From an uncultured Gemmatimonadales bacterium (GTDB taxonomy: Bacteria > Gemmatimonadota > Gemmatimonadetes > Gemmatimonadales > GWC2-71-9), in NCBI GenBank assembly GCA_963697065.1, contig CAVOMQ010000003.1, forward strand, positions 43,974 through 107,973: a stretch of 64,000 bases of DNA, in the 5' to 3' direction. This document shows positions 10,077-58,429 of the stretch, piece after piece. Position 1 is the first letter of the stretch, and every line of letters starts with the position of its first letter. Both the position numbers and the translations under genes were made by a program. Under the pieces are notes generated by a model. That model was not told where the DNA came from, did not search any database, and saw nothing but the letters and a program-made list of their open reading frames with translations.

Positions 10077-10091
10077 CTCAGAACGCCCGCC

Positions 10092-24741: not shown

Positions 24742-24855
24742 AACGGCCTCCGAGCAGGGAGGCCGGGAGGATCAGGTCTTCAATGGCGCGCAGCGAATCG
24801 AACGGACGCCGGCGGGTTCAAAGAAACGCAACGTTCGATGCGATCCGGCCGCCGT

Positions 24856-43810: not shown

Positions 43811-44902
43811 TCAGGTGGCGGCAGACTTCTCACCGAACGCCTTTTCGATCGCCTCTTTCTGCTCGTCACTGAGCTTCTCCGGGATCCGCACTTTCACCGT
43901 CACCACTTCATCGCCGGCCTGGCCGCTCTTTTCGAGCCCCTGGCCGCGGATGCGGAATTTGCGCCCCGGCTGCGTGCCGGACGGGATCTTGAGCCGCACC
44001 TTGGCACCACGGACCGTGCGCACCTGGATCACCGCACCCAGCAACGCCTGCGAGAGTGAGATCGGGATTTCGCAGAGAATGTCGAGACCGTCGCGGCTGA
44101 AGAAGCGATCGGGCTCCACCTGGAACGTGACCAGCACGTCGCTGGGACGCCCCCCCGCCTTGGCCCGGGGACCTTGCTCCTTGAGGCGCACGCGGGTGCC
44201 GCTGTCGGTGGCCGGAGGGACGGTCACGAGCAGGTGCTTTTCGGCGCGCACTTCGCCGCTGCCGCCGCAGGTGTGACACGGCGTGCCGGGGATCTTGCCG
44301 CGCCCACGGCACACCGGACAGGGGCGGTTCACGGCAAAGCCGCCCTGTCCGAAGGAGATCGTTCCGGTGCCTTTGCACTCCGGACAGGTCGTGAGCGACG
44401 TGCCCGGTTCCGCACCGGTGCCACCGCAGGTGGCACACACGTCGTTCATCGCGAGCGTCACCGGCACCTTGCCACCGGTGGCCGCAGTCCGGAACGGGAC
44501 GCTGACGGTGACCTCGACATGATCTGGCTCGACCTCCTCACCGCCGCCGCGGCGCCGCCCGAAGATCGATGAGAAGATGTCGCCCAGTCCGAACGACCCG
44601 AAGTCGCCGAAATCGACCCCTTCCGCACCGCCCTGGCCGCCGCCGGGCCGTGGCGCGCCGCGCGGGCCGGTGGTGTCGAACGCACCCAGCCGCCGCATGC
44701 GGTCGTACTTGCTGCGCTGCTCCGGGTCCGACAGCACGGTGTTGGCCTCGGAGATCTGCTTGAAGCGCTCCGCCGCCTGCGGATTGTTGGGATTGGCGTC
44801 GGGATGGAACTGCTTGGCCAACTTGCGGTAGGCCTTCTTGATGTCGGCGGCGGTCGCCGACTCGGGAACGCCAAGAACCGAGTAGAAATCCTGGCTGGCC
44901 AC
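43811..44902 (-). CDS. dnaJ: Chaperone DnaJ
   Basis: J-domain HPD, G/F region, four CxxCxGxG repeats. Confidence 0.95.
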   Translation of the reverse strand: MASQDFYSVLGVPESATAADIKKAYRKLAKQFHPDANPNNPQAAERFKQISEANTVLSDPEQRSKYDRMRRLGAFDTTGPRGAPRPGGGQGGAEGVDFGDFGSFGLGDIFSSIFGRRRGGGEEVEPDHVEVTVSVPFRTAATGGKVPVTLAMNDVCATCGGTGAEPGTSLTTCPECKGTGTISFGQGGFAVNRPCPVCRGRGKIPGTPCHTCGGSGEVRAEKHLLVTVPPATDSGTRVRLKEQGPRAKAGGRPSDVLVTFQVEPDRFFSRDGLDILCEIPISLSQALLGAVIQVRTVRGAKVRLKIPSGTQPGRKFRIRGQGLEKSGQAGDEVVTVKVRIPEKLSDEQKEAIEKAFGEKSAAT

Positions 44903-45463
44903 TCAGTTACCCTGGTCGGAATAGACCTGGACGCGCGCCGGCCGGATCACCGCGCCCTTGAACCGGTAGCCGGTCTGGAAGACCGCCTTGACGGTATGGT
45001 CCTGATCCGGCCGTTCGGCGGGGGCCACGGACACCGCCTCATGCTGGGTGGGATCGAACGGTTCGCCCACGGCCGCGATCTGCTCCAGCCCTGCCGCCTG
45101 CAGCTCCTTCCACAGCTTCCGCTGGATCAGCAGGAACGCGCTCTGGAAGGTGTCCGTCGGCTCCGGGTGGCCGGCCGCCAGGCGGTCGATGTCGTCGATC
45201 ACGTCGAGCAGCCGCAACGCCAGCGCCGCGGCTCCCCGGTCGAAGGCCTCGGTCTTCTCGCGGTGGGTGCGCTTGCGATAGTTGTCGTATTCCGCGGCGA
45301 GGCGCAGGAACCGATCCTCGGCGTCGGCCACCGCCTTGGCCGCCTCGGCGGCCGGTATGCTGTCCTCCGGGCGCCAGTCCTCCTCCGGAGGCTGGGGCTC
45401 GGTCATGGGCAGGTCGCGATCGGCGTTTCCGGCAGCGCCTTCCATCGGATCTTCAGCCTTCAC
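44903..45463 (-). CDS. grpE: Nucleotide exchange factor GrpE
   Basis: RLAAEYDNYRKR, FDPTQHEAV, GYRFKGAVIRPARVQV; GTG with AAGGAG RBS. Confidence 0.92.
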   Translation of the reverse strand: MKAEDPMEGAAGNADRDLPMTEPQPPEEDWRPEDSIPAAEAAKAVADAEDRFLRLAAEYDNYRKRTHREKTEAFDRGAAALALRLLDVIDDIDRLAAGHPEPTDTFQSAFLLIQRKLWKELQAAGLEQIAAVGEPFDPTQHEAVSVAPAERPDQDHTVKAVFQTGYRFKGAVIRPARVQVYSDQGN

Positions 45464-45537
45464 GTGGGGGCTCCTTTCCGCATCCGCTGAAAGGAACGCA
45501 ACCCATGTGCCGGAAGGCAATGCCGGAAAGGCAGCCC

Positions 45538-45677
45538 GGAGCCCAGGGCCCAGAGCCCCGCATGTCGGACTCGGCGCGTAGAGTCAACATCACGGCGATG
45601 CGACCAGACGCCACACCGCCGAACGCTGTGCAAGCCGAGTTCCGTGTTCGGGGCCATGGGCTCTGGGCCATGGGCTC
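45538..45677. repeat. REPIN/MITE-like palindromic element, copy 1
   Basis: Left arm GAGCCCCGCA.GTCGGACTCGGC and right arm GCCGAGT...GTGTTCGGGGCCATGGGCTC shared with 51488-51649. Confidence 0.65.
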
Positions 45678-45684
45678 GCTTCTT

Positions 45685-47307
45685 CTAGTACCGCCATCCT
45701 TTCGTATCCGCCCCCGCCGGCGCATGGGCGAGCAGCTGCGCCTCCATCTTCTGGAGAATCTCCGGCATCCGCGGCCCCCAGCAGTGCGGCGCCATCGGCT
45801 GGAAGACGATCTCGCCGGTCCACTTCGGATTCGCCGTGGTGGTGAGGAAATCATCGAGCATGTGGACGCCCATGTTGAGGTAATACGTGTCCATGGCACC
45901 GACGTAGACGTTGATCTTGTCAGCCACCTTCGGCCCCAGCGTCGACCAGTTGGTCTGGAGGATGTTCCGCAGGTCGTAGTGTTGCTTCCAGTAGTCGGCC
46001 ACCTGGTGGTCGATCACACCGGTCACCTTGTTCCAGATCGGCGCCGGGTAGCCGCCCGCTCCGACCGGACTGTACGTCGCCTGCCAGATGTCCCACTGAC
46101 CGCCGGAGCGGCCGCTGTCGCCCACCACCAGCTCGTACCAGTTCTCGTCCTTCATCATCGTGGTGATGTTGCCATCGGGCCGCCGGACGTCGGGGCGTTC
46201 CACCTTCATCCAGCCGTGATCGACCCAATAGGCGTTGCTGTCGCTGTAGATGTTCACGATCTGGTGGTAGCGGAAGTCCACCGCGTCGGGACAGAGCGCC
46301 CAGGTGCCGCCGTAGAAGTCGGGGTAGAAGACCTGCTGGGAGAGCGCGATCCATCCGCCCGTCGATCCGCCGGTGAGGAGCCGCGCCCACGGCTGGCCGA
46401 TCACGCGGAAGCGCTTCTCGACCGCCGGGATCAGCTCCTGCATGATCGCGTCGCCGTACGGGCCGTTGTTGGCCGAGTTGACGCCGTAGGAATCGTCGTA
46501 ATAGGGCGACGGATGCTGGAGCGAGACCATGATCACCCGCGGCGTGCTGTCGGCGAGCCATTGCGCGTTGGCACCGCCGCCCGGCGCGCGCAGCGAGAAG
46601 TGGCCTTCGTCGTAGACGATCGGGTACTTCACGTCGGGGTGTGTGTCATAGCCCTTCGGCAGCAGGACGATGGCGCCGAGGAAGATCGGCTGCCCCCACC
46701 ACTTCGAGAGAATGTCGCTCTTGATCCTGATGTGCTTGACATATTGGTCGTCAGCCGGCTCGGTGATCGGCGGAATCACCTGGTCAGCGACAAGCCGGAT
46801 CGGCGTCGACGACTTGGGATCGAAGGTGATCTGCACCGGCTTGCCATGGATGTTCCCCGGCGAGCTCTTCCAATCCTGTCCTTCCCACTGGTCCATGTGC
46901 AGCCAGACCACATGCCCGTCGGCGCGCGCGAACCGGGTGTAGATGTTGACGAACGGTTCCACCCAGTAGGTGCCGGCGGGGATGTCGCGCAGCGAGCGCG
47001 CCGGGTAGCCGAAGGTCGATGCGTCGATCACGGCCGGAGCGCCGGGCTTGAGTGCCTCGACATTCACGCCGAAGAGCGGCACGCCGTCTTCTCCGGTCTG
47101 GTCGATCGGGGTGCGGCGGGCGTCGTTGACCCGGGTGATCGCCACATACACGCGCCCGGTGATCGGGCCGGCGTGCGCGGACGCGGGGAACGAGATCTCG
47201 AAACGCGGGCCGGTGGCACGCTGGCCCGAGATGGCGGCGATGGGGAGTATGGTGATGATCGCCATGCAGACGGGCTGCGGCCAACGCCGTCGGACAGTCA
47301 GTATCAC
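45685..47307 (-). CDS. Secreted alpha/beta hydrolase (putative esterase family)
   Basis: IVLLPKGYD, NNGPYGDAIMQELIPAVE, LLTGGSTGGW nucleophile elbow; GGAGG RBS with GTG. Confidence 0.8.
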   Translation of the reverse strand: MILTVRRRWPQPVCMAIITILPIAAISGQRATGPRFEISFPASAHAGPITGRVYVAITRVNDARRTPIDQTGEDGVPLFGVNVEALKPGAPAVIDASTFGYPARSLRDIPAGTYWVEPFVNIYTRFARADGHVVWLHMDQWEGQDWKSSPGNIHGKPVQITFDPKSSTPIRLVADQVIPPITEPADDQYVKHIRIKSDILSKWWGQPIFLGAIVLLPKGYDTHPDVKYPIVYDEGHFSLRAPGGGANAQWLADSTPRVIMVSLQHPSPYYDDSYGVNSANNGPYGDAIMQELIPAVEKRFRVIGQPWARLLTGGSTGGWIALSQQVFYPDFYGGTWALCPDAVDFRYHQIVNIYSDSNAYWVDHGWMKVERPDVRRPDGNITTMMKDENWYELVVGDSGRSGGQWDIWQATYSPVGAGGYPAPIWNKVTGVIDHQVADYWKQHYDLRNILQTNWSTLGPKVADKINVYVGAMDTYYLNMGVHMLDDFLTTTANPKWTGEIVFQPMAPHCWGPRMPEILQKMEAQLLAHAPAGADTKGWRY

Positions 47308-47441
47308 GGTTCCTCCTGGAGGACTGAACTATAGCCCGGGCCGGACCAAGCCTGGCGCTCCCTGCCGGCCAATGCCCGACTGACGCCATTCTCGCCCGCG
47401 TCAGATCCTGATCCGAGCGCGCACCACGCGTTCCAATCCGC

Positions 47442-47470
47442 TTGACACTCGTTCGCAACGCGAGTATTAC
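47442..47470 (+). promoter_or_regulatory. sigma70-type promoter TTGACA-N17-TATTAC
   Basis: Both boxes conserved at 51934-51962 while the spacer differs. Confidence 0.65.
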
Positions 47471-47471
47471 C

Positions 47472-48134
47472 TTGTTTGTACACCAGCAGGATCCGGATCC
47501 CCTGACCGCATTGGACATCGATTGCGTTGGCGCACTGCATGGGCGACTGCTCGCCGGATACCCTGAGGCGGGCCCCGAGATCGCGGCTATCGCCTACGGT
47601 CCGCTGGTCGAGTACCTCATCGCCCATCACCCTTGCGTTGACCCCGGCGCGGTTCACGACGCCGTGGCCGACGCGGTCGTTGCCTATCTCGACCGCCCGG
47701 CCCGGGCCAACGGGGTCGGCGGACGCCAGGTCATGGCGCATCTTCAGCTTGCCGCGTGGCGGAACATCCTGAACCATCGGCGCCGGGAAGGTCGGCTCAA
47801 GCGGCGTGAACAGCGTTACGCAGCCGACCTCGGCCGGCGGCGGCGCGATTCGGACCGGCGGGTTGTTGCTCTTCTGGGTTCCGCGGGGAAAGTATTAGAG
47901 GAGGCGATAGATCCGGGCGAGTCCGCGGAAGTGTCAGCGATGGAGCCCGCCGGGTGGAGCACCGAGGAACGGACCGTCTGGGTGCTCTTCCGGGCCGGCG
48001 AACGACGAACTGCGGAGTACGCCGCGGCGCTCGGGATCACGGGTCGGCCCGTGTCAGACCAGCGGGTGATCGTCAAGCGCATCAAGGAGCGGCTCCGGGT
48101 GCGCGTGAAGCGGGGGGGGGGGCGTAGACGATGA
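47472..48134 (+). CDS. ECF sigma-factor-like regulator, copy 1
   Basis: Region-2-like VHDAVADAVVAYL..HLQLAAWRNILNHRRRE and region-4-like ERTVWVLFRAG..EYAAALGI..VKRIKERLR; TGA overlaps the dsbA ATG. Start inferred. Confidence 0.65.
   Translation: MFVHQQDPDPLTALDIDCVGALHGRLLAGYPEAGPEIAAIAYGPLVEYLIAHHPCVDPGAVHDAVADAVVAYLDRPARANGVGGRQVMAHLQLAAWRNILNHRRREGRLKRREQRYAADLGRRRRDSDRRVVALLGSAGKVLEEAIDPGESAEVSAMEPAGWSTEERTVWVLFRAGERRTAEYAAALGITGRPVSDQRVIVKRIKERLRVRVKRGGGRRR
48112..48122 (+). repeat. G11 homopolymer at the 3' end of ECF copy 1
   Basis: Counted directly. Confidence 0.85.
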
Positions 48135-48982
48135 GGTTCAGCAACGGGATTACAAACGGCTTGATGGTTGTCTCGGTCGTCTGCGCCGTCAGTCTGACGG
48201 GTATGCAGGTTTGGGAGCGGTTCGGTCCGGCGGTGCCGCCCACTGGGCCGTCGGCGCTTCGTGGCGCCGACACGGTCCGCATTCCGGATTGGCAACACGA
48301 CACAGTCGGTGGCCATCATCTGGGACTCGCGACAGCTCCTGTTACGATCATCGAGTTCGCGGACCTCGAGTGCCCCGTATGCCGGCAGTTCACTATCGGT
48401 GCTTTGGCATACATACGTGCGAAATACCCAACGGATGTGCAAGTCGTGTTTCGCCATTGGCCACTGAGCTATCATCATTTCGCGTACCCCGCGGCGCGGG
48501 CCGCTGAGTGCGCGGCCGCCCAGGGGCGATTTGATGCATTCCAGCAGTTGGTGCACGCCAAACAGGACTCGCTGGGGCTGAAGGCGTTCGGGGACTTTGC
48601 CCGGGAGGCGGAAGTGCCGGATGCGCGGGCGTTCGCCACGTGCAATGCCCAAACCGGTCCCGTTGCAGCGGTCGAAGCCGATATCAACGTCGCGAAGGCC
48701 GTGGGCGGTCGGGGGACGCCGACCATCGTCATCAACGGCTTGCGGTTAACTGGTGCGCCCGATTCCGCCTCGCTCGGTCGGCTCATCGAATCCGCGTTGA
48801 AGCAAATCCACGTTTCCGGCGGTACCAGCCCCGGGAAGGGGATTTCCCGGACTCGGCTGGAGCTGCCAACTACCGGCACTCTCGATCACCTGGAAACGCC
48901 TGCGGCCGTGGCATCCAACATCTTCACGCCGAACCCGAATCACGCCATCGCAACGCCCGAAGGAACCATACTCAGGAGGTAA
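48131..48982 (+). CDS. DsbA-family oxidoreductase (module 3)
   Basis: GLATAPVTIIEFADLECPVC, FRHWPLSYH, GGRGTPTIVING; N-terminal TM. Confidence 0.85.
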   Translation: MRFSNGITNGLMVVSVVCAVSLTGMQVWERFGPAVPPTGPSALRGADTVRIPDWQHDTVGGHHLGLATAPVTIIEFADLECPVCRQFTIGALAYIRAKYPTDVQVVFRHWPLSYHHFAYPAARAAECAAAQGRFDAFQQLVHAKQDSLGLKAFGDFAREAEVPDARAFATCNAQTGPVAAVEADINVAKAVGGRGTPTIVINGLRLTGAPDSASLGRLIESALKQIHVSGGTSPGKGISRTRLELPTTGTLDHLETPAAVASNIFTPNPNHAIATPEGTILRR

Positions 48983-48984
48983 CT

Positions 48985-49278
48985 GTGTTCAGCAAGCAGA
49001 TGATCGTCACCGGCCTTGCGAGTGTTACCGTCCTTGCCGCCGCGCTGGTGCATCCGCCAACCGCACAAGCAATGTGGCCGTCCTGCGGGCCGGGAGTGTA
49101 CACCATGTGCCTGGACGGGTTGGATCTTCCGGAGTGCTATGACGATCCAATATCGCTATGCCACGACTATCTCCAGCGCAACTACAGCTGCGACGGCAAC
49201 GTGATCGGGGCATACTGCCAGGTAAACGAAGACTGCGATTGGTCCAGCGAGGTGGTATGTTACGTCGAAGCCACCTGA
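48985..49278 (+). CDS. Secreted 8-Cys peptide P3
   Basis: GGAGG RBS with GTG; signal ending PPTAQA; C-x7-C-x8-C-x7-C-x9-C-x8-C-x5-C-x7-C. Confidence 0.75.
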   Translation: MFSKQMIVTGLASVTVLAAALVHPPTAQAMWPSCGPGVYTMCLDGLDLPECYDDPISLCHDYLQRNYSCDGNVIGAYCQVNEDCDWSSEVVCYVEAT

Positions 49279-49365
49279 GCCGCGTGGGACTCGCCAGTGT
49301 GGGGCAACGCAAGAGGAAACCGCAATGGTCCACCCGGCCGCGGATAGCAGCGATGGAGGGTTGGT

Positions 49366-51477
49366 GTGATTGTCCTTCAGCTATTGGCCGCGCTATCCAC
49401 GAATGGGGTAGCACAAGGCTGCCGAGATGGCGCGACGTGGAAGGACTCGGCCGAAGCGCTGATTCGCCGTTTGGAGCAACACGATTCGAGTGCACGGTCG
49501 AGGCTCGTTCCATACGCTGGTTGCCTCGTCGCCTATGCAGCTGAGCGTCAACTCGGTGCTGCTGACGCGAAACTGATGGCCAAGGTGGCCTTGGTGATGG
49601 CGGGGCCGATTTCGCCGCCGGAATCAACCCGCACGGCTCGCGAGGATCTCTGGCGCTTCCCGGCGGTGCAGGCATTGCGGCGGGGGCTGGCCGTCGACAG
49701 CGGTGACGCGTGGTACGCCGAGCAGCTCGAACGGATCACACCGTATCCATACATCTGGCTCGCGCCGGCCCGGGAACTGACACACCTCCGTGCCCTCGCG
49801 GCCCGCAACGCGATGCTCCCGGTCGATCTTGCCATGACCCGCATCCGGCTCGAACTTGAAACCGGTTCTCTCGATTCGGCGGCGCTGGCGTTCCGTCGAC
49901 TCGATTCAATATCGATCCCATTGCCGCAGTGGACCCATCTCGCTGCCGAGATCACCTTTGCGCGGGGCGATTCGGCGGCGGCCCGAAGCACCTACTACGC
50001 CGGCGCTGCCGCGATCTGCGATTCCAGTGATCGACAGATCTATACTCAGGAACTCTCGTGGATCGCGACGCCAGAGGAGTTGGCAATGTGGGACTCGCTG
50101 CCAATGACACCAGGCGCGCATCGTGATTGGTTGGAGGCGTTCTGGGCGCGGCGGGATCTGGCAGACGGGCAGTTGCCCGGTACTCGGTTGCCGGAGCAGT
50201 TCCGCCGCTGGCGCGAGGCGTTGCGCGACTACCGCTGGGACAGCGACGGCGATGTGGCGCTTGGGACGCCGGATCACGGCTTTGCCGAAGAGGATGGCGT
50301 CTGGAAATCCGACGACCTTCGCGTCCTCGGACCCAGTAACGCCGTGAACCGATGGCGGGCTAGGACCCGGATTCTCGATGACCGAGGTGCCATTGTGATG
50401 CGGCACGGCGATCCGATGCAGCTTCCACTGCCGCCGGGAAAGGCGTCAATCACAGAGCAGAACCTTTCGTGGCAGACACCGCGAGGGTCACTCATCATCG
50501 GCTTTTCCCGGATCAATGTCGCGAGCGGCCGCTTCGGCATGGTCGCGCGAAACATTCCGATGGGGGATCCCATGGTTGCCTGCGCATTCGATGCTCGACT
50601 CTGTCAACTTGCGCGCTTTGCGCACAGCCCGCTTGATCCCGCGGTGGCGACATCACACGGAATACTGGGCCAAGTCCTCAGATACTACGGAATGGAACGT
50701 GCGAGGGCCGAGCACACCGACGCCAACACGACCACATTCCGCGACTCCCTCGGCGCCATCACCCAGGCATTCGGTATCCCGAACGGCGGCGTACTTGTCG
50801 TTTTCGCCGTGCCCGCCGGCAGACTGACCAAGAATCCCGATGTGCCCGCCTTCGCCGCCAATCTCCGGGTGATCATCGGCGACTCCGCCGCGGGGCGCAT
50901 CGTCGCGGCGCTCGACTCTGTGCGCCATTGGCACACGGACGCCCCGGTCAGCGCCGATGCATGGCTGAGCGCGTACCTCACCGTTCCAGCGCCTGTCGGA
51001 ACCTGGGATGTGGCCATCACCATCTCCGACACGGCGAAGACGAGGGGCTCCGGCGTGCGCCTCGATGCCATTCCGGTGGTCATGTTCGACGGGAAGGCGC
51101 TCCAACTCAGCGACCCGATCCTCGGCCGCAGTGACGCGGGGCTGGTCTGGCATCACGACGGCGTCGCCATCCCCCTCAACCCCACCAATGCCTGGCGTAC
51201 CGCCGAACCGGTCGAGCTCACCGTGGAGGCCGATGGTCTCGTTCCCGGGCGCAGCTACAGCACCCGCTTCGAACTGTGGAAGGTGGCCGGGCACCCCAAA
51301 GCCCCCAGCGTCACCGTGGCGTTCACGGCGAAGACCGACAGCGCGCACGAGGTGATCCAACGCGAGCTCTCGGTACGCGAGCTCGATCCGGGCGACTACC
51401 GGCTGGTGATCCGGCTGCAGGACGCCGTCACGAAACAGGCCGTGACTCGCGAGCGCCGAGTGGCGGTGCGCCGGTAG
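49366..51477 (+). CDS. GWxTD-domain-like secreted protein with C-terminal Ig-like folds
   Basis: WIATPEELAMWDSL..WLEAFWARRD..EQFRRW..LDDRGAIVMRHGDP follows the GWxTD-domain pattern. Confidence 0.65.
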   Translation: MIVLQLLAALSTNGVAQGCRDGATWKDSAEALIRRLEQHDSSARSRLVPYAGCLVAYAAERQLGAADAKLMAKVALVMAGPISPPESTRTAREDLWRFPAVQALRRGLAVDSGDAWYAEQLERITPYPYIWLAPARELTHLRALAARNAMLPVDLAMTRIRLELETGSLDSAALAFRRLDSISIPLPQWTHLAAEITFARGDSAAARSTYYAGAAAICDSSDRQIYTQELSWIATPEELAMWDSLPMTPGAHRDWLEAFWARRDLADGQLPGTRLPEQFRRWREALRDYRWDSDGDVALGTPDHGFAEEDGVWKSDDLRVLGPSNAVNRWRARTRILDDRGAIVMRHGDPMQLPLPPGKASITEQNLSWQTPRGSLIIGFSRINVASGRFGMVARNIPMGDPMVACAFDARLCQLARFAHSPLDPAVATSHGILGQVLRYYGMERARAEHTDANTTTFRDSLGAITQAFGIPNGGVLVVFAVPAGRLTKNPDVPAFAANLRVIIGDSAAGRIVAALDSVRHWHTDAPVSADAWLSAYLTVPAPVGTWDVAITISDTAKTRGSGVRLDAIPVVMFDGKALQLSDPILGRSDAGLVWHHDGVAIPLNPTNAWRTAEPVELTVEADGLVPGRSYSTRFELWKVAGHPKAPSVTVAFTAKTDSAHEVIQRELSVRELDPGDYRLVIRLQDAVTKQAVTRERRVAVRR

Positions 51478-51487
51478 TACCAAACGA

Positions 51488-51649
51488 AAAGGCGCCCTGA
51501 GCCCATGGCCCTGAGCCCATGGCCCTGAGCCCCGCAGGTCGGACTCGGCCAGCGCTACCGCCGGACAGCAGTGCAAGAACTCGATGCCGCGCTGGCCTCC
51601 GTTCGCAGGCCGAGTCGGGTGTTCGGGGCCATGGGCTCAGGGCGCCTTT
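51488..51649. repeat. REPIN/MITE-like palindromic element, copy 2, with 23-bp perfect terminal inverted repeats
   Basis: AAAGGCGCCCTGAGCCCATGGCC (51488-51510) and its reverse complement (51627-51649). Confidence 0.75.
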
Positions 51650-51657
51650 CGCTCCTC

Positions 51658-51779
51658 TCATTTCACCCGCTTGCAGAGATCCATCATCGCCGCCTGGCAC
51701 GCCCGCGACCGGATATCGTGCCGCGTGCCGACGAAACTCCGCCGCACCGCGTCCACCTGCCCATGCACACTGTAGCCGA
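51658..51779 (-). pseudogene. cinA: Orphan 3' end of cinA
   Basis: 101-bp direct repeat (51679-51779 vs 55066-55166, 6 mismatches by eye) with its own tail and stop (DLCKRVK*). Confidence 0.85.
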
Positions 51780-51780
51780 C

Positions 51781-51907
51781 GGCACGCTGGCCCGAGAGGG
51801 CGGCCACGGGGGGCATGGCGACTGTCGCGATGCAGGCGAGCAGAGGCCGATGCGGCCGGAAGGTGGGTCTCACGGTTCCTCCTCGAGTGGTGAACCATAG
51901 CCCGGGC
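51781..51907 (-). pseudogene. Diverged copy of the 5' end and RBS of the esterase gene
   Basis: GGCACGCTGGCCCGAGA matches 47215-47231; CACGGTTCCTCCT...TGAAC.ATAGCCCGGGC matches about 47305-47341. Confidence 0.75.
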
Positions 51908-51933
51908 CTCACGCTGCATGGGTCCCACACCGC

Positions 51934-51962
51934 TTGACAGCCGTTCCCGGCGCAGGTATTAC
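51934..51962 (+). promoter_or_regulatory. sigma70-type promoter TTGACA-N17-TATTAC (copy 2)
   Basis: Read directly; same context as 47442-47470. Confidence 0.65.
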
Positions 51963-51963
51963 C

Positions 51964-52615
51964 TTGCTTGTACACCAGCAGGACTTGGATCCCCTTGGCC
52001 GGACCAGACGTCGATCGCGCTGGCGCACTGCACCTGCGGCTGCTGGCCGGGCACCCCGAGGCGGGGGCCGGAATCGCGGCGATCGCCTACGGTCCACTGG
52101 TGACCTACTTGGGCTCCCGTTTCCCTTACGTTGACCCGGACGCGGCTTACGACGCGGTCTCCGACGCGGTCATGGCCTACCTCGAACAGCCGGCCCGGGC
52201 CAAGGCGGTCGACGGACGCCAGCTCATGGCCCACCTTCAGCTTGCCGCCTGGCGTAACATGTTCAACCGTTTGCGTGAGGATGGCCGGCGCAGGCAGCGC
52301 GAGCGGCGATACGGCGACGCCAGGAACTGGCGGCGGCTGGAGTCGGCGCGGCGTGTTGTTGCTCTTGTGGGTTCGGCGGGGAAGGTATTACAGGAGGCGA
52401 TAGATCCGGGCGAGTCCACGGAAGTGTCAGCGATGGAGCCCGCCGGGTGGAGCACCGAGGAACGGACCGTCTGGGTGCTCTTCCGGGCCGGCGAACGACG
52501 AACTGCGGAGTACGCCGCGGCGCTCGGGATCACGGGTCGGCCCGTGTCAGACCAGCGAGTGATCGTCGAGCGCATCAAGGAGCGGCTCCGGGTGCGCGTG
52601 AAGCGGGGGGGGGGG
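51964..52615 (+). CDS. ECF sigma-factor-like regulator, copy 2 (1-nt indel near 52000; stop position depends on G-tract length)
   Basis: Paralog of 47472-48134. With G11 the frame runs on into peptide P4; with G10 it would stop at TGA near 52657. Confidence 0.6.
52605..52615 (+). repeat. G11 homopolymer at the 3' end of ECF copy 2
   Basis: Counted directly. Confidence 0.85.
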
Positions 52616-52690
52616 CGCTGCGAGCAACGATCGTTGTGTTCGGAATACCGGTCTGTGAGATCATTGTTCAATTCCAGCAAGGAGCGTCAG

Positions 52691-52975
52691 ATGCATCAAC
52701 AGCCGATTCGCCTTCTGGCGGCGGGCGTTGCGATCACCGCACTAGTCATCCTGGCGACCCAGCCAAGCAAGGCGCGCGCTGAGGAGGCAAAGTGTACCGA
52801 CGGGAAGGCGAATGAGGGGTGCCTGGAGTGCGACCCAGGCGGGAGCTGTAGCTTCAGTCACCCGGGCTTCAAGTCAAATGGCAGCGCGAACTCGTGGACC
52901 TGCGAGGTATCCGCGGGCGATCACTGCCAACACGGAGTCGCGAACTATGTGGACTGGAAGACCGAGGACGAGTAG
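52691..52975 (+). CDS. Secreted 6-Cys peptide P4
   Basis: AAGGAG RBS; signal ending QPSKARA; C-x8-C-x2-C-x5-C-x17-C-x7-C. Confidence 0.75.
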   Translation: MHQQPIRLLAAGVAITALVILATQPSKARAEEAKCTDGKANEGCLECDPGGSCSFSHPGFKSNGSANSWTCEVSAGDHCQHGVANYVDWKTEDE

Positions 52976-53045
52976 TGATTCAAACCGACGTGACGACGTC
53001 CCGGTCGGCCGGTTCCGCGGCCGGGCGCCCGCGTCCGGCGGTGCG

Positions 53046-54194
53046 ATGCAACGCGTCCTCGTGAACGCGGTGAGTTTATGCGCACTTGCTGGTTTCGCCG
53101 CCGCCTGTGCCCGCGACGCCAAGTCTGGAGCGGCGGGCCCGGACCAGAATCAGGCCGACCTGTTGCCGGACGATCACTTGCACCCCGTGGTGGTATCGGG
53201 CAGGCTGCTGGTGTCAAGCACCGCGTTCGGACGGCCCGAGTACGCACTGACGCAGGGGAATCGGCTCTGGATCTCCGACCAGGCTGGCGACCCATACATT
53301 CACCTTATCGATATTTCGGGGCGCCGAATTGTCGCATCCTTTGGTCACACCGGTGTCGGGCCCGGGGACTTTGATCAGGGAATCTCCGGTCTGTCGCGAC
53401 GGCCTGGGGACGCCACCGCAGCCTGGGCGCTCAGTCTCGGTCTCCGGCGCCTCACGAGGGTGCCCGCGATCAGCGCCGACACCGTGGTCACAATTCCCCT
53501 CACTGCACCCCGCTTTGCCGATCATGCAGAGTGGCTTACACGGGGCCGCCTGTTGCTGATCGGCGAAACGGATACCAGCCGCTTCGTGCTCGCTGATTCC
53601 AACGGGAAGCCGCTCCGGGTTGTGTCGGGCGATCTGGTCGGCGGGGATTCCATTTCGCTGGCGACACGAGTGGACCGCTCGAGCGGCCTTTCGCTTTGCG
53701 TGGCACCTGACGGTGCCCGTTTTGCCGTCTTCTACATTCACGCCGGACGCATGGATCTCTATGACTCCAATGCCGCACTGATTCGCCATGGCGACGTGCC
53801 GTTTGCGATCAACGGCTCATTCCGGCGCGATTCCGCAGGCCGCTGGCACGCGCACGACATCCGCCGCTACTACGAAGCCTGCTCGAGCAGTTCGACCCGT
53901 ATCTACGCGCTGTTCAGCGGCAAGCGGCTCGGACCGCGGTACACCGGAGCTGACGTCGAAGCGCAGTTCGTGCACATCTTCGATTGGACCGGCCGGTTCC
54001 TGGGTGCACTGCACCTCGATCAACCCCTGGCCGGGATGACAACGAGTGGCGACAGCGTGATGTACGGCATCGGGGCCGATGGCAGCCGGATCTATTCGTA
54101 CCGGCTGCCGTCGTTCAACTCCGCCCCAGCGGTGTCCGTTACGCCGACGAAGTCTAGCGGACTACTATTCGACGCCGGGGCCTCCTTATGGTGA
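53046..54194 (+). CDS. BF3164/TolB-like 6-blade propeller lipoprotein (module 4)
   Basis: Lipobox FAAAC; FGHTGVGPGDF; RIYALFSGK..FVHIFDWTG; paralog of 10092-11207. Confidence 0.7.
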   Translation: MQRVLVNAVSLCALAGFAAACARDAKSGAAGPDQNQADLLPDDHLHPVVVSGRLLVSSTAFGRPEYALTQGNRLWISDQAGDPYIHLIDISGRRIVASFGHTGVGPGDFDQGISGLSRRPGDATAAWALSLGLRRLTRVPAISADTVVTIPLTAPRFADHAEWLTRGRLLLIGETDTSRFVLADSNGKPLRVVSGDLVGGDSISLATRVDRSSGLSLCVAPDGARFAVFYIHAGRMDLYDSNAALIRHGDVPFAINGSFRRDSAGRWHAHDIRRYYEACSSSSTRIYALFSGKRLGPRYTGADVEAQFVHIFDWTGRFLGALHLDQPLAGMTTSGDSVMYGIGADGSRIYSYRLPSFNSAPAVSVTPTKSSGLLFDAGASLW

Positions 54195-54892
54195 AGGTCC
54201 ACATGATGGCTCGGTCGCACGATTGGGTGACAATCGTGCTGTTGCTCGTGGCAGGAATACTCGGCGGGTATGCGGCCTATGTACGATTCGGACCAGGACA
54301 GGGTGCCCGCGGCGACGAACCGGCATCAGCGCAATATGGCCGAGTTGGCGCGGAACGCTTCCGGCGTGCTGCCGAGACTGGGGATCGCATCGGACCGGAG
54401 AATGCCCCGATAACCGTCGTCGTCTTCTCCAACTACCTTTGTGAGTACTGCCGACGGTTTGAACCGACCCTGACACAACTCCATCATCGATATCCCGACG
54501 AGGTCGCGATCGTCTGGAAACACTACGCTCCCCTTCTTACACGCCGAGCATCAACGGTCGACCTCGCGGCCGACTGTGCGGCGGATCAAGGGGATTTCGC
54601 GCCGTTCAATCATGCCCTGTTCACCGACACACTTGTGGCACGCGTGCCGGACCGATGGCTGCGTATCGGTCAGCGCATCGGGATCGACACCGCAACCATG
54701 GCCGGATGCATTCGGTCGCGACGCCATGCCGCCGACGTAATGCACGACACGGAGGAAGGGCAGGCGCTGGGCGTGACAGGCACGCCGACCTCGTTCATCA
54801 ACGGCGTTCGCATCGTGGGCCAGGTACCATTCGACATCCTGGACTCAGTCGTATCGTCGCAACTTCGTAGCGGGCGGCCCAGTACAAAGTGA
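54188..54892 (+). CDS. DsbA-family oxidoreductase (module 4)
   Basis: GPENAPITVVVFSNYLCEYC, GVTGTPTSFING; N-terminal TM. Confidence 0.85.
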   Translation: MVKVHMMARSHDWVTIVLLLVAGILGGYAAYVRFGPGQGARGDEPASAQYGRVGAERFRRAAETGDRIGPENAPITVVVFSNYLCEYCRRFEPTLTQLHHRYPDEVAIVWKHYAPLLTRRASTVDLAADCAADQGDFAPFNHALFTDTLVARVPDRWLRIGQRIGIDTATMAGCIRSRRHAADVMHDTEEGQALGVTGTPTSFINGVRIVGQVPFDILDSVVSSQLRSGRPSTK

Positions 54893-55041
54893 TGCGCACT
54901 TGCACAGATCACGGTGTCAGATGCTCGCCCCAATGGATGAGGTGCCGGGAACGGCGCCCACGAGATTCATTCGATACCCCGAAAGCCCTGTAGGCTGCCA
55001 TGGCTCCCTCGTCCTGTTTTGGCCAGCGCCGCCACCGGTCG

Positions 55042-56300
55042 CTATGGTTGCACTCTGAGCAATGTATCCATCATCGCCGCCTGGCACGCCCGCGACCGGA
55101 TGTCGTGCCGCGGGCCGACGAAACTCCGCCGTACCGCGTCCACCTGCCCGCGCACGCTGTAGCCGAACCACACCGTCCCCACCGGCTTCTCCTGCGTGCC
55201 ACCGTCCGGTCCCGCGATGCCGGTGATCGCGATCGCCACCTCGGCGCCATGGCGCCGTGCCGCCCCCGCCGCCATCTCGCGCACCGTCTCCTCCGACACC
55301 GCGCCGTAGCGCTCGATCGTCTCTTCGCGGACGTCGAGCAGTTCGACCTTGAGGCGGTTGGCGTAGCAGATCACGCCACCGAGAAAGACATCGGACGACC
55401 CCGGAATCTCGGTGATGCGCGTGCCGAGCATCCCGCCGGTACACGACTCCGCCACCGCGAGCTTGAGCCCGCGCGCGCGCAGCGCGTCGAGCACCACCGC
55501 GGCGAGATCCGTGTCGCCTTCGCCGTAGACCCAACGTTCCGCCGCCTGCACAGGCGCGCGATTCCCGCCTTGAGCGCTGCATCCGCCGCGGCCGGGTCCA
55601 TGTGCCACGCGGTGAGCCGCAAATCCACGCCGCGCAGTCCCGGCAGGTAGGCCAGCGTCAATGGCGCCAGCCGCGCTTCGACGATGGCGACGGCTTCGGC
55701 CAGGGTCGATTCGGCCACACCGGTGGTCCGCAGCGTCGCCGAGCGCACCACGGCGCCGCCGAAGCGCGGCGCCAGGCGCGGAATCACCTCGTGCCCGGTG
55801 AGCATCCGCATCTCGTGCGGCACGCCGGGCAGCATGATGACGATGCCGCGCGGCGTCTCGATCCAGAGCCCTGGTGCGGTACCCCATTGGTTGGCGAGCA
55901 CCTCGGCACCTTCCGGCACCATCGCCTGACTGCGGTTCGACGCCACCGGCACTCGCCCGAGCTTCGCGAAGCGCGCTTCGAGGCGGTGCCAGACGTCGTC
56001 GTCGAACTTGAGCGGCAGGCCGAGGAGTTGCGCCACCGTTTCGCGGCTGCAGTCGTCGCTGGTGGGGCCGAGTCCGCCGGTGGTGATCACCACCGCCGCG
56101 CGCTGCAGGGCCGCGTCGACGGCGTCGCGAATCTGCGCCGGGTCGTCGCTGACGGCGGTACGCCGCACCACCGGCATCCCTGCGGCCGCGAGTGCGGTGG
56201 CCAGGAACGCCGAATTGGTGTCGACGGTGAAGCCCAGCAGCAGCTCGGTACCGATCGTCACCAGCTCGATGGCGATGCCGGACTCCGGAGTGCCGTCCAT
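55042..56300 (-). CDS. cinA: Competence/damage-inducible protein CinA (1-nt frameshift near 55552)
   Basis: VTIGTELLLGFTVDTNS, TTGGLGPTSDD, AVAESCTGG, ITGIAGPDGG..KPVGTVW. Confidence 0.9.
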
Positions 56301-56304
56301 CAGT

Positions 56305-56952
56305 TCATGAGCGGAAGAGCTGGCGGTATCGGATCAGATACGCCACGAACGAATAGATGGTGAGCGTCAGCGCGATGCCCAGCGTCGCGGCCACGAAGCC
56401 GCCGTGAAACTGGTGCCAGTACGCCGCCAGCTGCGAGTGTTCCCACCCCATCGGCTTGACGGCGTCGCGGAACGCGAACCAGGTGAGCGTGCCGCCGATG
56501 AAGACGTTCTGCAGCACCGCCTTGATCTTCCCCTCCGATTCCGCGGCGATCACCACGCCGCGCGTCTGCGCCCAGGCCCGCAGCACCGTCATGGCGATCT
56601 CGCGGCCGATCAGCAGCAGGCAGACCCAGAGCGGGATGCTCCCCCAGATCGGGATGTCGTACGCCTGCTGGCGCTCGGTGGAGATCCACCAGATCGGCCC
56701 CAGCGTGGCGAACAGCAGCAGCTTGTCGGCGATCGGGTCGAGATACTTGCCGAGGTCGCTCACCTGGCCGCGGCGGCGCGCCAGCCGGCCATCGATGACG
56801 TCGGTCACCGCCGCCGACACGAAGATCACGAAGCAGATCAGCTTGGGCCAGTAGCCATGGATGAACGGCAGCAGGGCGACGATCGGGGTGATCCCGATCC
56901 GCGCGATCGTGAGGATGTTCGGCAGGGTCCAGATGGTGCTGCGGTCGGTCAT
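56305..56952 (-). CDS. pgsA: CDP-alcohol phosphatidyltransferase (PgsA)
   Basis: [38 protein letters not shown]. Confidence 0.9.
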
Positions 56953-57623
56953 CCGAGCGACTTGAGCACCAGCTTGCTGACCGCCTTGAGGGTGTCGAAG
57001 ACCCCCTCGCCGCGCACCGCGATCGCCTCGAAGGTGGGCACCCGCTCCACCCAGACGCCGTCGACCTCGCGGACGAGATAGTCGCCGGCACGGTAGGGAT
57101 CCGGCGTGAGCTTCTGCTTCTCCGGGTCCTGCACCGGCCATCCCGGATTGAGCGCGGCGTCGAGCGACGCCACCGGTGCGGCGGTGGGGAGGTCGCGCTT
57201 GTTGTACTGGATCACGAACGGCAGCGTGGTCAGGTCGTAGCCGTGCTGCGCCATGTTGTCGTACAGGTTCTGCATCGCCTCGAGGTTCGCCTCGGTGCGG
57301 TCGATCTGCGAATCGGCCACGAACACCACGCCGTCGACGCCCTTGAGGATCAGCTTGCGCGACGCGTTGTAGTACACCTGGCCGGGCACGGTGTAGAGGT
57401 GGAACCGGGTGCGGAAGCCGCGGATCGTGCCGAGGTCGACCGGCAGGAAATCGAAGAACAGCGTCCGCTCGGTTTCAGTGGCGAGCGAGATCAGCTTGCC
57501 CTTGGACGACGGCGCGACCTTCTCGTAGACGTACTCGAGGTTGGTCGTCTTGCCGCCCAGCCCCGGGCCGTAATAGACGATCTTGCAGTTGATCTCGCGC
57601 GACGCGTAGTTGATCAGCGACAT
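56949..57623 (-). CDS. mglA: MglA-family small GTPase
   Basis: [58 protein letters not shown]. Confidence 0.93.
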
Positions 57624-57635
57624 CGGCCCGCCCTC

Positions 57636-58133
57636 TCAGCCGCCAAAGAGCTTGTCGAGTTCATCTTCCGCCTCGCCCACGAAGCCGGCGTCGACGCCGT
57701 TGCGCCGGCCGGTGTCCCGGGTGAACATGCCGGTGAAGATGTCGGTCAGCTCGCCCACGGTGCCGCGCATCCGCAGCTTGACCAGGCCGAGCGTGGTGCG
57801 ATTGTCGAACAGCACCACCAGGATCACCCGCCGGGCAATATCGGCGAGATAGAGCGACTCGCGCTCGCCCTGGTGGAACAGCGTGCCGAATTCCCCTTCG
57901 CCGAGCAGCCGCGCCAACTGGTCGTTGGCGGAAAAATCGGCGGCGGTCAGCGACGCGAACGCGGTCGGATCGAACGCCGGCGGCTCGCCCACCGTGATCA
58001 GCATCTGGCCGGCCCGGTCGACCAGCAGTGCCGTGCGCGCGGCGGCATCGCGCAGGAAGTCGACCAGCACCGCGCGGATGCGGTGCGAATCGTCTTCGCC
58101 GAACGACCACGATGCCGCCTGGCCAGCGCTCAT
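57636..58133 (-). CDS. mglB: MglB roadblock/LC7 GAP
   Basis: LLVDRAGQM, FASLTAADFSANDQLARLLGEGEF..LFHQGE, FDNRTTLGLVKLR. Confidence 0.9.
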   Translation of the reverse strand: MSAGQAASWSFGEDDSHRIRAVLVDFLRDAAARTALLVDRAGQMLITVGEPPAFDPTAFASLTAADFSANDQLARLLGEGEFGTLFHQGERESLYLADIARRVILVVLFDNRTTLGLVKLRMRGTVGELTDIFTGMFTRDTGRRNGVDAGFVGEAEDELDKLFGG

Positions 58134-58429
58134 GCCGCGCCCGCCCCGGCGCCCATCCTGAGCGCGCCGACCAGTTTCCACGCCCGGGCGCGGAGCGCCG
58201 GAACCACTTCCCACGCCAGATAGTCGTGCAGCAACGGCAGCCGCTCGGGGTTGCGCTCCCTCGCCAGCCAGCCGAGCGCGGCGCGGCGACGGTAGGCGCG
58301 GGTCGAGAAGAGGTCGCTGCGGTGCCGGTGGTCGAAGCGGCGCGACACGAACCACCCGGCCACGAGCCCGGCAGCCACCGCCACGGCGACACCGGCGGCC
58401 ACCCCGGCGGTCTCTTGCCGGCGCCTCAC
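58130..58429 (-). CDS. Small membrane-anchored hypothetical protein
   Basis: N-terminal TM then DLFSTRAYRRRAALGWLA; overlaps both neighbours (coupled). Confidence 0.6.
   Translation of the reverse strand: MRRRQETAGVAAGVAVAVAAGLVAGWFVSRRFDHRHRSDLFSTRAYRRRAALGWLARERNPERLPLLHDYLAWEVVPALRARAWKLVGALRMGAGAGAA

Follow-up and report, generated by a model that had tools for sequence, protein, structure and literature searches.

The window (the whole analysed stretch, 64,000 nucleotides from a soil Gemmatimonadales genome, hereafter G000) contains two units in tandem, which occupy the interval between a secreted esterase gene and cinA. Each unit has the order esterase 5' end, divergent (putative) promoter region, ECF-like sigma gene, secreted cargo and cinA 3' tail. 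This array, placed by an earlier note on this DNA at 47215-51780 (unit 1) and 51781-55166 (unit 2), was recovered by a repeat search and by pairwise alignments. Its features are the following, with G018 denoting the closest relative.

45685 to 47307, minus strand: full-length secreted esterase gene, 540 aa, Pfam Esterase; left conserved flank.
47308 to 47501, unstranded: divergent intergenic region of unit 1, with an esterase RBS/TATAGT block and a TTGACA-N17-TATTAC block facing the ECF gene.
47502 to 48134, plus strand: ECF1, putative divergent ECF-like sigma factor of about 208 aa; start CTG at 47502 or TTG at 47511, stop overlapping the DsbA1 start (ATGA).
47880 to 48122, plus strand: near-identical sigma C-terminal (region-4-like) segment, ending in a G11 run at 48112-48122.
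48131 to 48982, plus strand: DsbA1, DsbA/Thioredoxin_4 family (cargo 1), 64% identical in amino acids to its G018 counterpart.
48985 to 49278, plus strand: small1, small Cys-rich protein with a signal peptide (cargo 1).
49366 to 51477, plus strand: big1, putative lipoprotein of 703 aa (cargo 1) with a weak, sub-threshold match to the GWxTD domain.
51485 to 51652, unstranded: palindromic MITE/REP-like element of about 165 nt, adjoining T1.
51658 to 51779, minus strand: T1, orphan cinA 3' tail of 122 nt (last 40 codons and stop), whose stop-proximal end resembles the cinA end of G018.
51775 to 51781, unstranded: junction J, fusion of the cinA tail to the esterase 5' fragment.
51780 to 51873, minus strand: orphan esterase 5' fragment of 94 nt (GTG start and about 30 signal-peptide codons), forming a chimeric ORF with T1.
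51995 to 52618, plus strand: ECF2, second putative ECF-like sigma gene, start TTG at 51995, G11 run at 52605-52615.
52691 to 52975, plus strand: small2, small Cys-rich secreted protein with its own AAGGAG RBS (cargo 2).
53046 to 54194, plus strand: p460, putative lipoprotein with a weak match to a TolB-like six-blade propeller (cargo 2).
54188 to 54892, plus strand: DsbA2, DsbA/Thioredoxin_4 family (cargo 2).
55042 to 56300, minus strand: cinA, right conserved flank, with tail T2 (55042-55166); its frame breaks near 55547 as assembled.

The first segment of unit 1 consists of the signal-peptide codons of the full esterase gene (47213-47307). The esterase is 93% identical in amino acids to its G018 orthologue, and the nucleotide identity between G000 and G018 drops from about 87% to about 50% at 47215-47225. 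Both intergenic blocks are kept in unit 1, unit 2 and G018; a simple sigma-70 scan of the intergenic regions called no promoter, and a promoter function of the blocks is putative. The MITE/REP-like element, which had been described beforehand as a REP element next to this cinA tail, has a second copy at 45525-45684 and roughly 20-30 matches in the genome. As for the broken frame of cinA, a contig from X1, one of two short-read runs (X1 and X3) obtained from separate soil samples, is 97.8% identical to the cinA region of the window and carries one extra base that restores the reading frame.

Neither ECF1 nor ECF2 matched any Pfam or NCBIfam profile. The top Foldseek matches in the PDB for an AlphaFold2 model of ECF1 (pLDDT 74) were all ECF sigma factors, with a TM-score of 0.75-0.78 for the sigma2 domain and E-values that were not significant, and Sigma70_r2 was matched by three of ten family relatives retrieved by profile search, two of them above the cut-off. 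ECF1 and ECF2 may be ECF-like sigma factors, an assignment that we treat as putative. They resemble ECF (group 4) sigma factors in their length of about 200 aa, their two helical domains, their best folds (sigmaE, SigW, SigL and CnrH) and the Sigma70_r2 matches of some relatives, but differ from them in having no Pfam or NCBIfam sigma match of their own and no recognisable anti-sigma gene. In this genome, no other member of the family turned up when all six-frame ORFs were searched with a profile; alignment of the ECF genes against GTDB species genomes retrieved G018 only, and a search of ECF2 against 5.8 billion proteins retrieved ECF1 only. Only three copies are known at such similarity, all of which end in a G11-G12 homopolymer. 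The contigs carrying more distant relatives were too short for their genomic contexts to be informative. As assembled, ECF2 has no stop beyond its G11 run, and its frame runs on into small2 to 52975; the lengths of the G11 tracts are those of the assembly, the short-read contigs ending 17 nt before the runs.

The cargo of each unit comprises a DsbA-family protein, a small Cys-rich secreted protein and a large putative lipoprotein. The earlier claim that the cargo differs completely between the units thus holds for sequence and gene order but not for the kind of protein. DsbA1 and DsbA2 are only 27% identical. The cargo of unit 1 matches that of G018, with big1 being 65% identical in amino acids to a 708-aa protein of G018 and 62% to a paralogue on contig C1 of the same genome. 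For the cargo of unit 2, no homologue above 47% identity was found in this genome or in 60 relatives, and p460 belongs to a family confined to this genus, its best match in those relatives being 47% identical.

Pairwise alignment of the two units indicated a mosaic of divergence. The esterase 5' coding segments (47213-47307 and 51780-51873) are 73.7% identical. The intergenic regions align only at the esterase RBS/-10 block and the TTGACA-N17-TATTAC block, with an indel of 59-75 nt. The sigma N-terminal halves (47502-47879 and 51995-52372) are 75.7% identical, and the C-terminal 243 nt (47880-48122 and 52373-52615) 97.5% identical up to the G11 run, past which no homology was found. The cinA tails (51679-51779 and 55066-55166) are 94.1% identical, with a stretch of 36 identical nucleotides (51679-51714 and 55066-55101), and the final 21-24 nt ahead of the two stop codons are unrelated (DLCKRVK-stop in T1, DTLLRVQP-stop in T2), as had been noted before. 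The stop-proximal end of T1 matches that of G018, whereas that of T2 does not. The dS between the units is 0.43 for the sigma N-terminal half and 0.047 for the C-terminal part; the value of 0.43 would mean that the N-terminal halves were already old when the units were joined, or that the array is very old.

At the junction, the cinA-derived letters end at 51779 and the esterase-derived letters begin by 51782. The sole overlap found there by pairwise alignment is GCCG at 51775-51778 (CGGC on the gene strand), with no longer homology across the joint, which bears out the earlier observation of CGGC microhomology only. The fusion is in frame, and the chimeric ORF, previously put at about 70 codons, has 71: it runs from GTG at 51873 to the stop at 51658 and encodes 71 aa (...ALSGQRA followed by VGYSVHGQVDAVRRSF...KRVK-stop), preceded by GGAGGAA-N4-GTG, which is identical to the corresponding segment of the full esterase gene. 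The chimeric ORF is a by-product for which no function is expected, and neither it nor the orphan tail should be named as a gene in annotation. The scar keeps pieces of both flanking genes, and the breakpoints are therefore known to the base.

The junction is also present in short-read data. An X3 unitig of 151 nt (51713-51863) crosses it with no mismatch, as does a 398-nt X1 contig, of which 246 nt lie on 51679-51924. The earlier note had named a failure of reads to span 51780 as the sign of an assembly chimera; exact spanning in two soil samples indicates that the junction is not one. Furthermore, the junction cannot be derived from either single-unit haplotype, so that a tandem or a circular form must exist.

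Among the relatives, 17 genus genomes carry cinA and grpE together on a single contig, and in 12 of these the two genes lie 200-390 nt apart; the order in G007 is cinA-FKBP-esterase-grpE. A single unit of the unit-1 type (est-ECF-DsbA-small-big-cinA) is present in G018, together with an intact cinA of 419 aa and a unit-1-like cinA end. The earlier note expected single units with different cargo in relatives; the single unit of G018 has cargo of the unit-1 type, and in most relatives cinA abuts grpE. No orphan cinA tail was found in 60 relatives, and among the 61 genomes a second copy of the tail occurs in this window only. Unit 2 continues through T2 into cinA, pgsA and mglA, collinear with G018 and at 87% nucleotide identity over 55066-58500. 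The dS against G018 is 1.05 for the sigma N-terminal half, ranges from 1.05 to saturation across the island, and is 0.45-0.66 in the flanks. Insertions recur between cinA and grpE in Gemmatimonadales, which makes this interval a hot spot, and in this lineage it holds a hypervariable island. The module of sigma factor, DsbA, Cys-rich protein and lipoprotein evolves much faster than its flanks.

Judged from these comparisons, unit 2 has the look of a diverged relative's allele of this locus and not of a fresh in-situ duplicate, and it was probably imported and added through one illegitimate and one homologous exchange. We infer the donor, the order of events and the route as follows. The resident chromosome would have carried one unit (unit 1, as in G018), and the incoming DNA of a diverged relative would have brought the other allele of the locus, consisting of the donor esterase, ECF2, small2, p460, DsbA2 and the donor cinA, which was added rather than swapped. 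At the right end, homologous recombination within cinA would have given cinA its incoming 3' end, T2; at the left end, in the signal-peptide codons of the donor esterase, the incoming DNA would have been joined illegitimately at the 4-nt GCCG to the resident cinA, 40 codons ahead of its stop, an event that stranded the resident tail T1 and put it in frame with an orphan esterase start. Gene conversion over about 243 nt may later have homogenised the sigma C-terminal segments, up to the G11 run at which their homology stops. Most simply, the addition would have taken a single step from linear DNA, by homology-facilitated illegitimate recombination (HFIR) in natural transformation or by an equivalent break repair. 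Within the imported-allele reading, we give this route a somewhat less than even chance; anchored by homology in cinA and joined illegitimately at its far end, linear DNA would yield the same product as a circle in fewer steps, and this route fits the data equally well or better.

Replacement-type flexible genomic islands, such as O-antigen and capsule loci, exchange allelic cassettes through homologous recombination in conserved flanks. The locus resembles them in its sharp boundaries between flanks and interior and in the different gene sets found at one site, but differs in that the incoming allele would have been placed beside the resident one instead of replacing it. The literature records HFIR joins that use 3-10 bp of microhomology beside an anchor of homologous sequence (PMC6382021, citing de Vries and Wackernagel 2002). 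In the array, the novel joint likewise lies at short microhomology, and at its other end the insert passes without interruption into homologous DNA. The likeness to HFIR as summarised in that source (de Vries and Wackernagel 2002; Meier and Wackernagel 2003; via PMC6382021) extends to putatively foreign DNA beside a homologous anchor, a far end at 3-10 bp of GC-rich microhomology (GCCG in our case) and the absence of recombinase or mobile-element genes. The difference from the cases summarised there is that the "foreign" DNA would here be an allele of the same locus, with a scar that holds recognisable fragments of both flanking genes, and that the event is deduced from one natural genome. The genome encodes homologues of ComEC and DprA, as do 10-11 of 14 control genomes; being nearly universal, these proteins do not demonstrate competence. 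Furthermore, the esterase-side breakpoint lies within about 2 nt of the collapse of identity between G000 and G018, a coincidence that a random illegitimate join does not predict and that counts against the import reading. The donor haplotype, that is, the donor esterase, unit 2 and the donor cinA alone, was not found in any collection searched. Esterase homologues were tried as a guide to the donor and rejected: they number in the thousands, none is closer than 80%, and the donor N-terminus was not identifiable among them.

The earlier note had proposed that a circle excised from the same locus of a relative was integrated by a Campbell crossover and supplied a new cinA end. Several parts of this proposal are borne out, namely the diverged allele (with its own esterase 5' end, promoter region and cinA end, the sigma N-half at dS 0.43, cargo at no more than 47% and a single unit of the unit-1 type in G018), the illegitimate 4-nt join and the intact cinA with the incoming 3' end; the circle and the Campbell crossover are not, there being no supporting sign of the former and no placeable point for the latter. 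A donor circle closed by illegitimate joining of esterase codon about 30 to cinA codon -40, followed by a single Campbell crossover in the 101-nt cinA tail, would yield exactly the observed product, and the 36-nt identical stretch of the tails is long enough for RecA pairing. The search of the reads for circle junctions also yielded one X1 contig with the topology of a unit-2 circle or of two copies of unit 2 in tandem: it runs through 54914-55065 and then 51679-51924, that is, from the right end of unit 2 through the tail and the junction to the left end of unit 2. However, the copy switch lies within the 36-nt identical stretch at a depth of 2.8 (about threefold), the competing branches (51560-51669 and 55167-55211) are uncovered, and the X1 depth is about 1.7 for unit 2 and about 2.0 for unit 1, so that unit 2 has no excess. 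Such a switch is what a k=31 graph with tip clipping should produce, and we rejected the contig as a proof of a circle or amplification. In addition, a non-replicating circle needs to enter the cell, and uptake in transformation delivers linear single strands. Nor does the tail reveal a crossover point: T1, T2 and the G018 tail differ at 6, 9 and 9 of the shared 101 nt in a star-like SNP pattern, with three unique changes each in T1 and T2 from the G018 tail, and this equidistance makes both the point and the direction of a crossover unreadable. We had also taken T1 to be of the resident type up to 10 nt from the junction, on the basis of three bases that it has in common with G018 against T2, but T2 also shares three with G018 against T1, and this argument for the one-step linear route over the circle was withdrawn. 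As a whole, the circle is rather unlikely, both as a route within the imported-allele reading and as an account of the locus.

Large identical tandem duplications are rapidly lost through RecA, and an array of diverged units is stable from the outset. This favours the imported allele over an origin in situ, in which an unequal illegitimate sister exchange would have duplicated the segment from the esterase 5' end to cinA codon -40; the copies would then have diverged for long, one of them would have received new cargo, and gene conversion would have acted on the sigma C-terminus. The microhomology junction is typical of tandem duplication, and the two most similar segments (97.5% and 94%) lie on either side of the cargo as possible arms for a later cassette swap. 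The tail (6 differences between the units, 9 to G018) and the sigma N-half (dS 0.43, and 1.05 to G018) could also share one age, about half the distance between G000 and G018. However, an identical repeat of 4.5 kb must then have outlasted recombinational loss for about half a species split, G018 has one unit, and more events are needed, including replacement of the stop-proximal tail as well as of the cargo. Roughly uniform divergence would be expected, but the identities along the units are 73.7%, 75.7%, 97.5%, none, 94.1% and none. Moreover, the esterase fragment is diverged to within 17 nt of the junction, and a later allelic replacement cannot therefore explain its divergence. We consider an in-situ duplication improbable.

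An assembly artefact, in which two haplotypes (esterase, unit 1 and cinA; donor esterase, unit 2 and donor cinA) or a chromosome and a separate unit-2 molecule were stitched together, is very improbable. The genome is a MAG, and only in the assembly is unit 1 connected to T1 across the MITE, short-read contigs being absent over 51546-51678. X1 contigs over cinA and pgsA differ by 2-3% from the window and those over unit 1, the junction and unit 2 are identical to it, which indicates that more than one strain is present. However, the junction occurs in the reads of two samples and could not arise from single-unit haplotypes; for most of their length the units share only about 75% identity, which makes a collapse or mis-join by a long-read assembler unlikely; and the genome has only five contigs, its nearest relative being a long-read MAG.

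Least probable of these rivals, and very improbable, is site-specific integration, in which unit 2 would be an island aimed at the cinA 3' end that brings a replacement tail and depends on a recombinase encoded elsewhere. Direct repeats of a gene 3' end around an insert with a replacement tail are the classic signature of such islands, the array also shares with them its tandem units and a functional gene that takes the incoming end, and a tandem array at comM in the same window has orphan 3'-end copies at 12810-13304 and 15287-15820. However, Pfam and NCBIfam scans of the unit ORFs found no recombinase, no att core beyond the 4-nt overlap is seen, the lack of an orphan cinA tail in the 60 relatives means that the site is not used recurrently, and the insert begins on its left with a piece of the chromosomal gene next door, a sign of an origin from the allelic locus and not from attP. 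A genome-wide search, made for tyrosine recombinases, gave five Phage_integrase matches, all on C1 and none on C3, the 135-kb contig of the array.

With the imported-allele reading, the array requires ordinary illegitimate and homologous recombination and no new mobile-element mechanism, and it offers a natural example of a hypervariable locus that gains a second allele instead of exchanging the one it has. It seems doubtful, and we give it little weight, that the array is one product of a recombinase-free stacking and shuffling of modules of regulator, DsbA and Cys-rich secreted protein in this lineage rather than a one-off event. If it were, short portable homology arms, such as the sigma C-terminal segment closed by a G-run and a conserved gene tail, could serve incoming DNA for the exchange or addition of cargo at conserved genes' 3' ends, where, within this window, both cinA and comM carry such arrays, and the repeats would permit later amplification or collapse. 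The locus also points to an uncharacterised family of modules, in which a divergent ECF-like sigma factor occurs with a DsbA of its own, a small Cys-rich secreted protein and a large lipoprotein.

The locus belongs to a metagenome-assembled genome of 3.18 Mb (68% G+C, five contigs), and the species-level genome nearest to it in the genome collection is OY970263.1, a long-read metagenome-assembled genome of an uncultured Gemmatimonadales bacterium (hereafter G018). At the locus in the window, two tandem islands, unit 1 and unit 2, lie between the esterase gene and cinA, with the following gene order.

Features of the locus
43811-45520, minus strand, dnaJ-grpE (left flank)
45685-47307, minus strand, secreted esterase gene
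47308-47501, divergent intergenic region of unit 1
47502 or 47511 to 48134, ECF1, ECF-like sigma gene of unit 1
48131-48982, DsbA1
48985-49278, small Cys-rich secreted protein of unit 1
49366-51477, big1, 703-aa lipoprotein
51485-51652, MITE/REP-like palindromic element, 165 nt
51658-51779, minus strand, orphan cinA tail (T1)
51780-51873, minus strand, orphan esterase 5' end
51874-51994, second intergenic region, unit 2
from 51995, ECF2, ECF-like sigma gene of unit 2
52691-52975, small2, second small Cys-rich protein, unit 2
53046-54194, p460, 382-aa putative propeller lipoprotein
54188-54892, DsbA2
from 55042, minus strand, full cinA gene (its tail, T2)
55042-57623, minus strand, cinA-pgsA-mglA (right flank)

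The tandem arrangement of units running from an esterase 5' end through an ECF gene and cargo to a cinA 3' end, as proposed in the earlier note, was borne out by a repeat search and pairwise alignments, in which the repeats were far above chance.

Identity between unit 1 and unit 2
Esterase 5' coding, 47213-47307 vs 51780-51873: 73.7%
Intergenic region, 47308-47501 vs 51874-51994: alignable in two conserved blocks alone
ECF N-terminal half, 47502-47879 vs 51995-52372: 75.7%
ECF C-terminal part up to the G11 run, 47880-48122 vs 52373-52615: 97.5%
cinA tail, 51679-51779 vs 55066-55166: 94.1%

Beyond the G11 run (from 48123 vs from 52616), the cargo has no sequence homology and a different gene order, but it is not completely different, as had been claimed, in that a DsbA-family protein, a small Cys-rich secreted protein and a large lipoprotein form a kit common to both units. 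At the junction between the units (51779/51780), the join can be placed between 51779 and 51782, and the parents share GCCG alone (51775-51778), in agreement with the proposal of an in-frame esterase-cinA fusion at a microhomology. The chimeric frame starts with GTG at 51873, with GGAGGAA at the same spacing as in the real esterase gene, and its product of 71 residues consists of a signal peptide followed by the last 41 CinA residues. The cinA tails were also found to differ at their ends as described, the last 21-24 nt before the stops (51658-51678 vs 55042-55065) having no identity. Over the 101-nt shared tail, T1 and T2 differ at 6 positions, with three unique changes in each, and both differ from G018 at 9, so that the comparison is star-like.

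Three soil-metagenome short-read runs of one study cover parts of the region at ~3x depth. Against the junction being an assembly chimera of two haplotypes, which would be indicated if reads did not span 51780, it was crossed with zero mismatches by a 151-nt unitig (51713-51863) from run X3 and by a 398-nt contig from run X1, of which 246 nt lie on 51679-51924. Because the overlap at the junction is 4 nt only, the 31-mers across it represent real molecules, which no single-unit haplotype supplies, and, therefore, a tandem or circular form occurs in nature. Positions 51546-51678 had no short-read coverage, so that only the assembly connects unit 1, via the MITE/REP-like element, with T1. The X1 contigs were identical to the window on unit 1, the junction and unit 2, and had at most one mismatch when those on the esterase gene are counted too, whereas those on cinA and pgsA (55214-56840) were 2-3% different. 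Close to the cinA tail there may thus be a boundary of recombination between strains.

The remaining 152 nt of the 398-nt X1 contig correspond to 54914-55065 and are joined to 51679-51924, giving the order of unit 2 right end, T1-type tail, junction and unit 2 left end. This topology would be that of a unit-2 circle or amplification, or of a tandem of two unit 2 copies, or else the product of a path switch in the de Bruijn graph. As proof of a circle the contig was rejected, since the copy switch falls inside a 36-nt stretch that T1 and T2 have in common without a difference, X1 had zero depth on either competing branch (51560-51669 and 55167-55211), and the depth over unit 2 (~1.7) was not above that over unit 1 (~2.0). 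The assembled structure alone, with a k=31 graph and tip clipping, would yield such a contig.

Among the genus genomes with cinA and grpE on one contig, 12 of 17 have the two genes on the same strand with a gap of 200-390 nt. Across the order the gap reaches up to ~10 kb, and the interval is therefore an insertion hot spot; in G007, another relative, the order is cinA, an FKBP lipoprotein gene, the esterase gene and grpE. G018 has one unit, composed of esterase, divergent ECF, DsbA, small Cys-rich protein and a 708-aa protein, followed by an intact 419-aa cinA. This single unit is of the unit-1 type. The stop-proximal cinA sequence of G018 is also like T1, not T2. No second copy of the cinA tail was found elsewhere among 61 genomes, the orphan T1 being present in the window only. 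The p460 family is confined to the genus, with at most 47% identity to the unit-2 copy.

Between the window genome and G018, dS in the flanks was 0.49 for esterase, 0.45-0.53 for cinA and 0.64-0.66 for grpE and dnaJ, and in the island it was 1.05 for ECF, 1.7 for big1 and saturated for DsbA. Nucleotide identity falls from ~87% to ~50% at 47215-47225, the boundary between signal peptide and mature esterase, and the orphan esterase fragment is cut within ~2 nt of this point. GC3 of island genes (0.66-0.81) is below that of the flanks (0.84-0.94). Between the two units, dS was 0.43 for the sigma N-terminal half (dN/dS 0.58) and 0.047 for the C-terminal part.

Large identical tandem duplications are quickly lost through homologous recombination. 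Since such duplications are unstable, most of the length of the units had already diverged by ~25% and G018 has a single unit, import is preferred over duplication in place. The esterase 5' end, promoter region, sigma N-terminal half, cargo and cinA end of unit 2 are all its own. In the most economical reading, unit 2 would be another allele of this locus, which came from a diverged relative and was placed beside the resident allele. This would require a homologous exchange within cinA together with an illegitimate join at GCCG. The 97.5% identical sigma C-terminal segment stands out from this pattern and would need a later gene conversion of ~243 nt, which stopped at the G run, where homology ends. 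The join could have been made directly on the resident chromosome, by one-step integration of linear DNA, or, as the earlier note proposed, it could have arisen beforehand in a donor circle, which a Campbell crossover then brought into the chromosome. The outline of that interpretation, with import of an allele, an illegitimate join and a new end for cinA, stands, but the circle and Campbell mechanism is unproven, and the one-step route is favored only because it does not need circle transfer. Pfam/NCBIfam scans found no recombinase genes in the units, and the whole contig encodes no tyrosine recombinase; ComEC and DprA are present in the genome, which is uninformative here. The one-step linear route would be an event of the same kind as homology-facilitated illegitimate recombination, for which joins at 3-10 bp microhomology are described (PMC6382021), and the event is a product of an already known kind of recombination.

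ECF1 and ECF2 matched no Pfam or NCBIfam model. The AlphaFold2 model of the regulator has two helical domains (pLDDT 74), and its best PDB matches were all ECF sigma factors, with a TM of 0.75-0.78 for the sigma2 domain and non-significant E-values. A profile search gave 1633 representatives of ~200 aa, with Sigma70_r2 in 3 of the 10 scanned. Assignment as divergent ECF-like sigma factors is thus reasonable but not proven. In the searches made, the gene is known only from the window genome (two copies) and G018, and all three copies are closed by a run of G11-G12 (48112-48122, 52605-52615 and, at L005, about 15330-15341); in the whole genome, no more than 12 runs of G or C are 9 or longer. With run lengths as assembled, the short-read contigs ending 17 nt before the runs, the stop of ECF1 (G11) overlaps the DsbA1 start (ATGA), ECF2 (G11) reads through into small2, and in G018, where the run is G12, the gene continues into DsbA; with one G less, the ECF2 stop would be 15 codons further on.

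Several side observations were made around the locus. As assembled, cinA has two overlapping frames (55042-55887 and 55371-56300), and an X1 contig that matches 55486-55889 at 97.8% identity has one added base after 55547, which restores a G018-like frame; the frameshift (55540-55555) may be real or may come from an error in the long-read assembly. The MITE/REP-like element (~165 nt, terminal inverted repeats AAAGGCGCCCTGAGCCCATGGCCC...GGGCCATGGGCTCAGGGCGCCTTT) has copies in the grpE-esterase spacer (45525-45684) and the big1-T1 spacer (51485-51652), with ~20-30 BLAST matches per copy genome-wide. Paralogous modules of a propeller lipoprotein or a large protein with DsbA occur genome-wide (27-62% aa identity), in the window at 9372-11081 and 21521-22180, some inside the comM array, and on other contigs at C1:557352-559187, C2:61320-62642, C1:1002819-1009940 and C5:68615-79504, several of them near long G/C runs (C1:1004602 G12, C5:68098 G9, C5:77978 C9). 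Two orphan comM 3' ends (12810-13304 and 15287-15820) lie downstream of the full comM (about 23211-24771), and the cargo of this array is like that of the cinA units in kind, with a regulator, a small Cys-rich protein, a propeller protein and DsbA.
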